NCBI GenBank assembly: GCA_951406725.2
Contig: OX597828.1
Location: forward strand, 25,420,001-25,484,000
DNA: 64,000 bases
Origin: Octopus vulgaris
Lineage: Eukaryota
Direction: 5' to 3'
Part shown: piece after piece, positions 61,895 to 64,000 of the stretch
How positions within the stretch are numbered: the first letter of the stretch is position 1
Layout of the letters: each line of letters starts with the position of its first letter
The notes under the pieces: model-generated
Seen by the model: the letters and a program-made list of their open reading frames with translations, nothing else
Told to the model about the DNA's origin: nothing
Database searches by the model: none
Made by a program: the position numbers and the translations under genes

Positions 61895-61995
61895 TCTATC
61901 TATCTATCTATCTATCTATCTATCTATCTATCTATCTATCTATCTATCTATCTATCTATCTATCTATCTATCTATCTATCTATCTATCTATCTAT
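61895..61995. repeat. (TATC)n microsatellite abutting the Tx1-like element
   Basis: Direct reading. Confidence 0.97.
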
Positions 61996-62436
61996 AGAAA
62001 CACAACCAAACCAAATGCAAACACGAACAAAGCAGGGGGAAATACATCTCCCGAAGACATTTCAAAACCCAACGCAAACAACAGCCACACCAACACCACA
62101 AAAACATATACAGCAAACATGCTCACAGCCATAGACACCAAAAACACAAATTTAATGGAATACATCCAATCAAAAACAAACATAACAGAAGATGACATAA
62201 AAACAAACAATCACCCATACACAACACCACCAGACCACATCAAAATATTACACATCTCCAAAAGTCTGCACCACACACTCAAAGGCATTTTCCCCAGTGC
62301 GGTTGGTAAATGCCAAAAATATCTCACAAAGAAACTGTACTGGGATCTTCTCGAGGACAAACCAACGGAGGAGAAAGCAAAAACGGAGGAGAAAGCAGTA
62401 AGTAACCCTCTGTATTCTAATTCATTAGAACTATGA
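61996..62436 (+). CDS. C-terminal part of ORF1 of a 5'-truncated Tx1/L1-like LINE
   Basis: Frame open from the microsatellite junction (RNTTKPNAN...) to TGA at 62434-62436; lies directly upstream of ORF2. Confidence 0.7.
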   Translation, partial: RNTTKPNANTNKAGGNTSPEDISKPNANNSHTNTTKTYTANMLTAIDTKNTNLMEYIQSKTNITEDDIKTNNHPYTTPPDHIKILHISKSLHHTLKGIFPSAVGKCQKYLTKKLYWDLLEDKPTEEKAKTEEKAVSNPLYSNSLEL

Positions 62437-64000
62437 TCAAGATTGGTTGTGTAAATGCGCGTGGCTTGGGGTCCCCTTGGAAACAAGGGTACCTCTTAAA
62501 TGACATAAAGTCACATAAGTTAGAAATCATAGCCATAAGCGAGACCAGACTCCACAATCCGCGGGCCCTAAAGACCATGTTTGGCGGACAGTTCAACATT
62601 TATTTTTCCCCCTGTCTGCCGAGAATGGGCGGTAGTGGCACCGCGGTACTTTTTCACAAGAGTCTGGATCTCAAAGTAAGGACAATATTCGTAGACCCGG
62701 AGGGTAGACTGGTCGTCCTGGATGTCGACGGCAGCAATGGGTGCGCTTTTCGACTCGTATCAGTTTACGCACCGCCCTTAACAGGTCGGGCGGATTTCTT
62801 TCAACGTCTAGAAGTTTTCTTGGGAACGTCTCGTCCTTTACTCTTAGTGGGGGATTGGAATGCTACCTTGGACACGCATGTAGACTACGTGGGTAGAGAT
62901 AGGAATAGACGGGGATGCAAATGCCTCAGAGACCTGCTCAGACGCTTTCAACTGTCTGACAGGTTCCGACTAGACCACCCGAATGCGCCAACGTGGACAT
63001 GGAGCAACCGCATCGGGTCATCGAGATCGTATCTAGATAGGATACTGTGTAGGACAGTAGATAGAGATAGCATAGGATGTCCACAATTCCACATAGTCAG
63101 CTACACGGATCACAAACTTGTGACATGTACGCTAGACTTAGGTAAGACACTTAGGCAGGGTCCCGGATACTGGAAACTAAACGCGTCTTTCCCATCGAGA
63201 CAAGTTTTCAGAGACCGGATTAGCACACTAGTAAAGAGGGCTTTGACGGGAGCCATCATCAACAACAAATGGTGGTTTGCCCTCAAGAGAGCAGTAAAAG
63301 CAGAAGCGATTAGGTACAGCAAAGCACTAGCCATAGATAGAAATAGAGTAGAGGGTGAGCTAGTTAAGAAGCTAGAAGAGGCAATTAGAAGCGGCATCGC
63401 ATCCGACGTTTTGGCGGCGAGGTTGGCCCTCGACCAACACTTCAACGCCAAACACGAAGGATGTGCTGTCAGAGCTAGGATGCGTGCTCTAAGGAACGAA
63501 GGTGTTGGAGCCGCGAGAGAGGCCCGGGTGGCAGAGGCGCAACAGGGCAACAAAGCCACCATTCGGTCACTGGTAGATGAACAGGGGCGCGAATTGCTCG
63601 AGCCAAGTAAAATGTGTGAAGCCTTTCAGCAGCATTTTGCCCGACTGTTCGGAACGAGTGGAGGGCAAGAACGTAGGGTGGACTTCAGTGCCTACCTACA
63701 TAGCCTACCACGACTCTCGACAAGAAAGGCAGGGTGCTGCGAAGGTGCCATCACGGCGGCGGAAGTGCGGGAAGCGATGGCAGAATGCTCGAGGGACAAA
63801 TCACCGGGTTTGGATGGTCTACCCTACGAGCTTTACAATTGTATGCCAGACTTGTTTGGAGATCTCTTGGCGGCGGTGTACTGCAACTGGCAGCAAAACG
63901 GGAGCATTCCTGGTTTTGTGAGCCGAGGAGCCGTAACACTGCTGAAGAAAGATCTAAACAAGGGAAATGTAATAGATAACTTTAGGCCCATCACTCTGCT
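62433..64000 (+). CDS. Tx1/L1-clade ORF2 (APE endonuclease plus start of RT), uninterrupted and running off the window
   Basis: Manual translation of 522 codons with no stop: MIKIGCVNARGL...AISETR...VYAP...VGDWN...YLDRIL...YTDHK...GPGYWKLNAS...KSPGLDGLPYELY...VTLLKK...NFRPITL. Probably absent from the ORF track because no stop lies in the window. Confidence 0.95.
   Translation, partial: MIKIGCVNARGLGSPWKQGYLLNDIKSHKLEIIAISETRLHNPRALKTMFGGQFNIYFSPCLPRMGGSGTAVLFHKSLDLKVRTIFVDPEGRLVVLDVDGSNGCAFRLVSVYAPPLTGRADFFQRLEVFLGTSRPLLLVGDWNATLDTHVDYVGRDRNRRGCKCLRDLLRRFQLSDRFRLDHPNAPTWTWSNRIGSSRSYLDRILCRTVDRDSIGCPQFHIVSYTDHKLVTCTLDLGKTLRQGPGYWKLNASFPSRQVFRDRISTLVKRALTGAIINNKWWFALKRAVKAEAIRYSKALAIDRNRVEGELVKKLEEAIRSGIASDVLAARLALDQHFNAKHEGCAVRARMRALRNEGVGAAREARVAEAQQGNKATIRSLVDEQGRELLEPSKMCEAFQQHFARLFGTSGGQERRVDFSAYLHSLPRLSTRKAGCCEGAITAAEVREAMAECSRDKSPGLDGLPYELYNCMPDLFGDLLAAVYCNWQQNGSIPGFVSRGAVTLLKKDLNKGNVIDNFRPITL

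Follow-up and report, generated by a model that had tools for sequence, protein, structure and literature searches.

A 5'-truncated Tx1-like LINE flanked by (TATC)n arrays in Octopus vulgaris and the likely specificity of its family for this microsatellite

The stretch studied here, 64,000 nucleotides of the Octopus vulgaris genome (contig OX597828.1, positions 25,420,001 to 25,484,000; referred to as the window), ends in a partial copy of a long interspersed nuclear element (LINE) that lies directly against a (TATC)n microsatellite. The microsatellite is a pure (CTAT)25 array on the + strand (61896..61995), which stands as the target repeat immediately 5' of the element and runs into it without any spacer (junction 61996/61997). 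From 61996 to 64000 the window was 100% identical over 2005 bp to element positions 1822-3826 of a 6075-bp full-length copy located on another chromosome (L062:1779-7853). When other copies were fetched with window 61997-62432, the element was found to go on upstream of the first base of the window copy in 30 out of 30. Therefore, the 5' truncation of the window copy is real and amounts to 1821 bp.

Two open reading frames (ORFs) were found in this copy, both on the + strand. The C-terminal remnant of ORF1, of about 146 codons, occupies 61996..62436 (element 1822-2262) and ends with the TGA at 62434-62436, which shares bases with the ATG of ORF2 (62433) in an ATGA overlap. The first 522 codons of ORF2 (62433..64000) cover an apurinic/apyrimidinic endonuclease-like (APE) domain at about 62490-63056, a linker and the start of the reverse transcriptase (RT), and the frame runs past the window. 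The APE domain was detected with Pfam (E 2.5e-16), and in an alignment with the human L1 endonuclease the N, E, Y, D-x-N and D positions, which we take to be the catalytic residues of that enzyme, were all kept, with an SYTDH motif after them. The original prediction, which was made from the letters of the window, had described about 2 kb without stop or frameshift, APE catalytic motifs that were intact and a 5' truncation exactly at the end of a pure array. The two frames were indeed uninterrupted up to the window end, the catalytic motifs appear intact in the alignment, and the array ends at 61995, with the LINE starting at 61996. As the copy lacks the 5' untranslated region (UTR) and around 540 codons of ORF1, it is not autonomous.

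Beyond position 64,000, the 3' end of the window copy was located at window-equivalent 67899 (L031 6899), where it ends with AATAAAGAAACAT and is followed by approximately 230 bp of (ATCT)n. The copy is thus bordered by the repeat at both ends, (CTAT)25 on the 5' side and (ATCT)n on the 3' side, and the 3' junction, for which a flank free of TATC repeats had been named as evidence against targeting, carries the repeat. The assembled copy also contains a +1 G and a -1 A indel within homopolymer runs and a gap of 100 N (L031 4918-5017; window-equivalent 65918-66017). Element positions 4191-5741 (1.55 kb) are present on both sides of this gap, with the homopolymer indels on the first side, and the same G>A variant was found in both flanking copies. 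A genuine internal duplication of the element is not the preferred explanation; most likely, there is a single copy in which two contig ends were abutted unmerged, as a scaffolding artefact.

The family to which this copy belongs is a 6.1-kb LINE with two ORFs, of which eight full-length copies were examined (L062-L069). These copies share a common 5' end (..CACAATGGACGG) and consist of a 219-nt 5' UTR, an ORF1 of 686 codons (stop to stop), an ORF2 of 1149 codons and a 3' UTR of about 380 nt that ends with AATAAAGAAACAT; (ATCT)n comes next, and no poly(A) is present in the copies listed. The register of the 3' junction is fixed (AAACAT-ATCT), and an AATAAA signal lies 8 nt before it. Pairwise divergence among the eight copies ranged from 0.10 to 0.54% (median 0.35%), and both ORFs were open at full length in three of them.

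Copy numbers were estimated from first-pass search candidates and are lower bounds. A query from the 5' part gave 1039 candidates, and the 40 matches that were scored all showed 100% identity over 436 bp; the 3' tail query gave more than 2047 candidates, and the C-terminus of ORF2, searched with an outgroup protein query, gave 14019, with 22 of the 150 scored matches lying in open frames of 1125-1204 amino acids (aa). The 20 loci analysed from this outgroup search all belonged to the same family, 19 of them with 91-97% aa identity to the young copies, and because such older copies exist the family must have been active for some time. By its near-identical copies, the family is very young, present in high copy number and recently active, as the original prediction had proposed.

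Some observations made on the family stand apart from these estimates. One locus (L070) was initially taken as a sister family with 71% identity and was rejected, as it corresponds to an old copy of the family with frameshifts and an insert resembling a short interspersed nuclear element (SINE). This SINE-like insert breaks the 3' UTR (L070, reverse strand, around 2240-2420 and 3000-3170), and an inverted copy of it is located some 600 bp further on. At L064:331-370, an unrelated repeat with a similar ...GGGCAATAAAGAAA end is followed by non-repeat DNA, and could represent another element whose 3' end is related. In sequencing runs that carry five coded organism labels, 78-97% of the 31-letter words of the last kilobase of the element (L031:5900-6899) were present, so that near-identical copies are, judging from these shared words, common to close relatives or to differently labelled samples. 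Contigs of the element were also found in four runs guessed to be RNA, which are possibly DNA and in which the 3' end with the repeat was skipped; one loose end resembles a template-switch adapter of cDNA synthesis, and no claim on expression or on the RNA 3' end was drawn from them.

In the full-length ORF2, Pfam detected the Exo_endo_phos (24-212), RVT_1 (511-760) and C-terminal zf-RVT (983-1035) domains. Its best relative of solved structure was the human L1 ORF2p (E 2.4e-53, residues 6-877, covering APE and RT), with R2 proteins matching the RT only (E 4e-20 or weaker). The APE domain alone matched the L1 endonuclease (E 3e-8). Among the listed structure matches of this domain, none at E <= 0.01 was an R1-type endonuclease chain; such chains are presumably present in the PDB. 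ORF1 carries a CCHC knuckle motif (CYLCGSETHLKKTC) and gave no match to Transposase_22 or any other Pfam family at E <= 0.1, nor any relative in a word-based search. An exhaustive search revealed 245 relatives, with zf-CCHC matched in 8 of the 26 aligned. The fold predicted from the single ORF1 sequence was discarded (predicted local distance difference test, pLDDT, 38.7), and the alignment-based model (pLDDT 89.7) was closest to proteins with tandem RNA recognition motifs (RRMs), such as IMP3 RRM12 (Foldseek E 2e-4, prob 1.00); the template modelling (TM) score was only about 0.3 because the two RRM domains sit differently. From this model, ORF1 is predicted to encode a Type I ORF1p, with a CCHC knuckle in addition to two RRMs, and PMC5203782 describes this type as consistent with the Tx1 clade.

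The closest named relative was a hypothetical protein of Argonauta hians (65% identity), and no Tx1 or L1 names were found among the cluster members of the relatives or in the protein atlas. For the genomic context of relatives with about 41% identity, a metagenome scan with P0019 gave no result; a search of the octopus genome with the C-terminus of P0017 returned only the present family, at 34-39% identity to the query. The family is consistent with the Tx1-like assignment that had been proposed, in the order of its domains, the type of its ORF1, its missing poly(A) and its choice of target.

The flanks of the copies were scored by the presence of at least three repeat units within 40 bp of the junction, separately for each orientation. 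The set of 5' junctions comprised alignment starts of at least 150 bp without upstream continuation, after removal of starts less than 60 bp from a locus edge, of the loci of the window and of duplicates. On the 3' side, at least three sense units were detected downstream of 39 out of 49 distinct tails, and on the 5' side upstream of 46 out of 58 distinct truncation junctions; the full-length 5' ends behaved in the same way (7 out of 8), and the reverse orientation was found in none of the three groups. Truncation of the 5' end is frequent in the family, as in other LINEs, and the truncation points were scattered across element positions 34 to 5885. In the background (window 1-61800), three sense units were present in 79 of 6176 windows of 40 bp (1.3%) and three reverse units in none. 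As all three queries were free of the repeat, its presence in the flanks does not stem from the way the copies were searched.

Further sets of copies pointed in the same direction. Among the 30 copies fetched by 100% identity, 18 exceeded the fetched flank, and inspection by eye revealed the repeat before each of the 12 truncated ones, two of which (L035 and L036) are a single duplicated locus. The older subfamilies obtained with the outgroup query showed the same 3' flank at 15 of 20 loci. As a weak and separate hint, contigs from independent DNA runs contained more truncation junctions preceded by the repeat (loose ends X2, X3 and X5). The same repeat thus flanks far more than 20% of the copies examined, the proportion used as a criterion in PMC4494074, and does so at both ends and in one orientation.

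Because the copies sit in one orientation with both ends in arrays, specific insertion into (TATC)n is likely. The window copy is a 5'-truncated member of this 6.1-kb family, and we regard it as quite probable that the family inserts specifically into (TATC)n by target-primed reverse transcription. This is the targeting that the original prediction had proposed, and the compiled flanks, most of which carry the repeat at both ends in a single orientation, support it.

The 3' flank on its own admits another explanation, in which the (TATC)n is the tail of the element itself, insertion is untargeted and the arrays are products of the LINE instead of its targets. Every tail begins in the same register (AAACAT-ATCT...), one to three repeat units are kept even in copies whose downstream DNA is not repeat, and in four copies the repeat was found on the 3' side only. 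Because of the fixed register and of the units retained without any downstream repeat, the 3' repeat is very likely templated in part by the RNA. However, an own tail cannot explain the repeat found 5' of 46 of the 58 scattered truncation junctions and of seven of the eight full-length ends, and it leaves without explanation the upstream arrays bordered by unique DNA, the arrays free of any LINE tail and the duplicated array variants described below. We consider untargeted insertion with a self-made tail very improbable.

The relation between arrays and insertions was followed from the DNA that surrounds them. Unique DNA borders the upstream array in five of the eight full-length copies, and in the other three this array comes after another copy's tail. 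The window also contains two arrays, at 30844-31192 and 42531-42628, that are not preceded by a LINE tail. Moreover, some single copies carry a shared complex array variant on either side: ctgtcagtctgtctgt in L016, ctcaatc in L024, ctgtttgtct in L081 and, together with the end motif of the array, ctacctacctacct in L062. The spacing of these variants implies duplications of around 35 to 80 bp.

To quantify this recurrence, the non-pure 12-mers shared between the 100 bp upstream and the 130 bp downstream of 42 copies were compared with those of 500 shuffles. Five or more shared variant 12-mers were found in 9 of the 42 copies, and the shuffled pairs averaged 2.7 and never exceeded 7, so that none of the 500 shuffles reached the observed value; with a threshold of 15, 3 of the 42 copies were positive compared to a shuffled mean of 0.09. 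A single shared 12-mer was not significant (17 of 42, shuffled mean 12.7), and only the stricter thresholds separated the real pairs from the shuffled ones. In three copies (L068, L021 and L018), a long upstream array is accompanied by just 9-13 repeat bases downstream, and because of this short remainder the duplication must be variable or absent in them. Judged from sequence, it is likely that the arrays predate the insertions and that long array duplications occur at insertion.

Several copies form head-to-tail stacks that share one array (L006, L022, L060, L062 and L069). Such stacks could partly stem from unequal exchange, and two loci 15 kb apart (L035 and L036) have identical flanks, which is what would be expected if insertion were random and the copies either survived mainly in microsatellites or were spread with their flanks by segmental duplication or recombination. 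Nevertheless, a divergence of 0.1-0.5% leaves little time for such sorting, selection would not yield 0 reverse orientations in 115 junctions, and both the outer flanks and the truncation points differ from locus to locus. We consider random insertion extremely improbable.

Specific insertion into pre-existing arrays would proceed as follows. The endonuclease would nick the (GATA)n strand, and cDNA synthesis would be primed by a few (AUCU)n units at the RNA 3' end, paired with the strand that was nicked; the AATAAA signal located 8 nt before the junction would direct cleavage of the RNA inside the repeat. The cut in the second strand would fall further downstream, at a distance that varies and may reach tens of bases, in such a way that part of the array would be duplicated and each insertion would make its own target longer. 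Translation of ORF2 would rely on reinitiation at the ATGA overlap.

A variant of this scheme supposes that the endonuclease is weakly specific and that the targeting depends mainly on pairing of the 3' (AUCU)n of the RNA with any nicked or broken (GATA)n. The short repeat unit retained at the end of every copy and the insertions at the edges of arrays or outside them fit this variant; the data fit a sequence-specific nick equally, so that it is a form of the proposed targeting and not an exclusive rival. In two papers on related elements, the cleavage specificity of the endonuclease is believed to be the main factor (PMC3812793), and target choice is described as determined mainly by the encoded endonuclease (PMC4494074). 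We regard a mainly RNA-guided choice of target as improbable. A broader possibility, which we consider doubtful, is that the LINE would make its own landing sites, its RNA-templated (ATCT)n tail and the duplication of tens of array bases leading to a mutual amplification of the element and the abundant (TATC)n arrays of the genome, with a specificity that would be largely read from the RNA and re-programmable.

Several points weigh against specific insertion into (TATC)n. The copies examined were the best-scoring matches of the searches and not a random sample, and the background was taken from one 62-kb stretch (window 1-61800). Twelve of the 58 5' junctions and 10 of the 49 tails did not reach three units. 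Most of these 10 tails keep 1-2.5 units followed by unrelated DNA. The 5' failures include alignment breaks inside diverged copies (L003, twice, L009 and L017) and imperfect or very short arrays (L034, L046, L069 and L078), and in the other four (L027, L029, L030 and L057) ordinary DNA was found upstream. Because at least these four junctions have ordinary DNA upstream, the targeting is not absolute. In addition, causes other than target-site duplication could underlie the variants shared by both halves of an array, an empty allele was found for none of the occupied sites, and the predicted fold of the 3' UTR was not significant (z -0.79).

Other (TATC)n sites of the window, all on the + strand, contain a second and shorter member of the family. 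A 168-bp 3'-terminal LINE fragment (40328..40495), which ends with AATAAAGAAAAACATAC and belongs to an older subfamily of the same family, lies between an upstream (TATC)23 array (40235..40327) and a downstream (CTAT)21 array (40496..40580), in agreement with the putative 3' fragment within (TATC)n that had been noticed at 40.3 kb. The two arrays without a LINE tail upstream, a (TATC)n array of about 350 bp (30844..31192) and a (CTAT)24 array (42531..42628), are candidates for unoccupied targets. All the pure (CTAT)>=4 segments of the window (9 out of 9) were in the + orientation and none in the -; they represent five or six loci, too few for significance.

The short copy at 40328 shares its truncation zone with other copies. 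Nine of 30 tail copies (window 40328, L005, L013, L016, L019, L020, L025, L027 and L030) are truncated within a single T/C-rich stretch of around 40 nt, some 165 bp from the 3' end, which could be a truncation hotspot or reflect a short non-autonomous form. Elsewhere in the window, an open frame of 132 codons (61317-61715, + strand) lies directly upstream of the (CTAT)25 array and gave matches to helix-turn-helix families (HTH_23 and others) that were weak, at E 5e-4 to 1e-2, and never reached the Pfam cut-offs. The frame resembles what is left of the N-terminus of a DNA-transposon transposase, presumably of Tc1/mariner likeness. A tandem pair of a 184-bp unit with 93% matches and a SINE-type look is located at 5685-6057, and a short interstitial telomere-like run of AACCCT-type repeats at 6865-6924.

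If the targeting is true, the tetranucleotide (TATC)n/(GATA)n would join the few microsatellites into which APE-type LINEs are known to insert. The main value of the family is that it provides an unusually young and abundant example. With thousands of candidate matches, near-identical copies and open ORFs, it would offer a practical system to study how an APE endonuclease and an RNA tail jointly choose a 4-base repeat. Stacks of elements in (TATC)n arrays are also a likely source of structural variation and of assembly gaps, such as the one in the window copy, and could confound microsatellite markers in octopus.

The literature on octopus repeats, in the parts accessible, lists L1-Tx1 among the LINEs of these animals (PMC13282606, PMC8967140), with counts for O. 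vulgaris of 13 families and of 421 insertions that were active recently (PMC13282606, Table 1 and elsewhere); no analysis of targets was found in those parts of either paper. Likewise, (TATC)n/(GATA)n is not named as a LINE target in the accessible text of PMC4494074, PMC3812793 and PMC4640811. A full-text search found no publication on a (TATC)n-specific LINE, so that the suggestion of an undescribed family holds for the literature searched; an entry in Repbase or Dfam, which lay outside this search, is possible.

The family belongs with the known target-specific L1/Tx1-type LINEs, with a target that was not found in the literature searched. L1 itself has a poly(A) end, a Transposase_22-type ORF1 and a loose preference for TTTT/A sites. 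In contrast to human L1, the octopus family ends in (ATCT)n, its ORF1 is predicted to have an RRM-RRM-knuckle arrangement, and its copies lie in a strict repeat context.

LINEs that end in short tandem repeats of their own and seed microsatellites are reported, for example RTE in Lepidoptera (PMC2887409). The octopus family resembles them in the tandem repeat after its 3' end, part of which is probably RNA-templated, but its repeat is also found 5' of the junctions and is present without the element. Microsatellite-specific non-LTR (long terminal repeat) elements include Waldo, (ACAY)n, and Mino, (AC)n, of the R1 clade and Dong, (TAA)n (PMC3812793), as well as Togen, (TG)n, and some HERO families (PMC4640811). 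Waldo, Mino, Dong and Togen belong to other clades, and the endonuclease of the Dong and Togen clades is restriction-like, whereas the octopus APE matches the L1 endonuclease.

Closer parallels are found within the Tx1 clade. Crocodilian Tx1 families (Tx1-1_Crp and others) prefer (TTCC)n or (TTTC)n, as judged with a flank threshold of 20% (PMC4494074), and share with the octopus family a tetranucleotide microsatellite target. The octopus family differs from them in its repeat unit and host, exceeds that threshold by far and is much younger, with near-identical copies. The precedents invoked in the original prediction, the Tx1-clade families Kibi, (TC)n, and Koshi, (TTC)n, of teleost fishes, are indeed stated to be microsatellite-specific APE-type LINEs (PMC4494074, PMC3812793). 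Like them, the octopus family has both ends in one repeat and is L1/Tx1-like; unlike them, its target is the tetranucleotide (TATC)n in a cephalopod-like mollusc host, and some of its copies show apparent duplications of tens of array bases.

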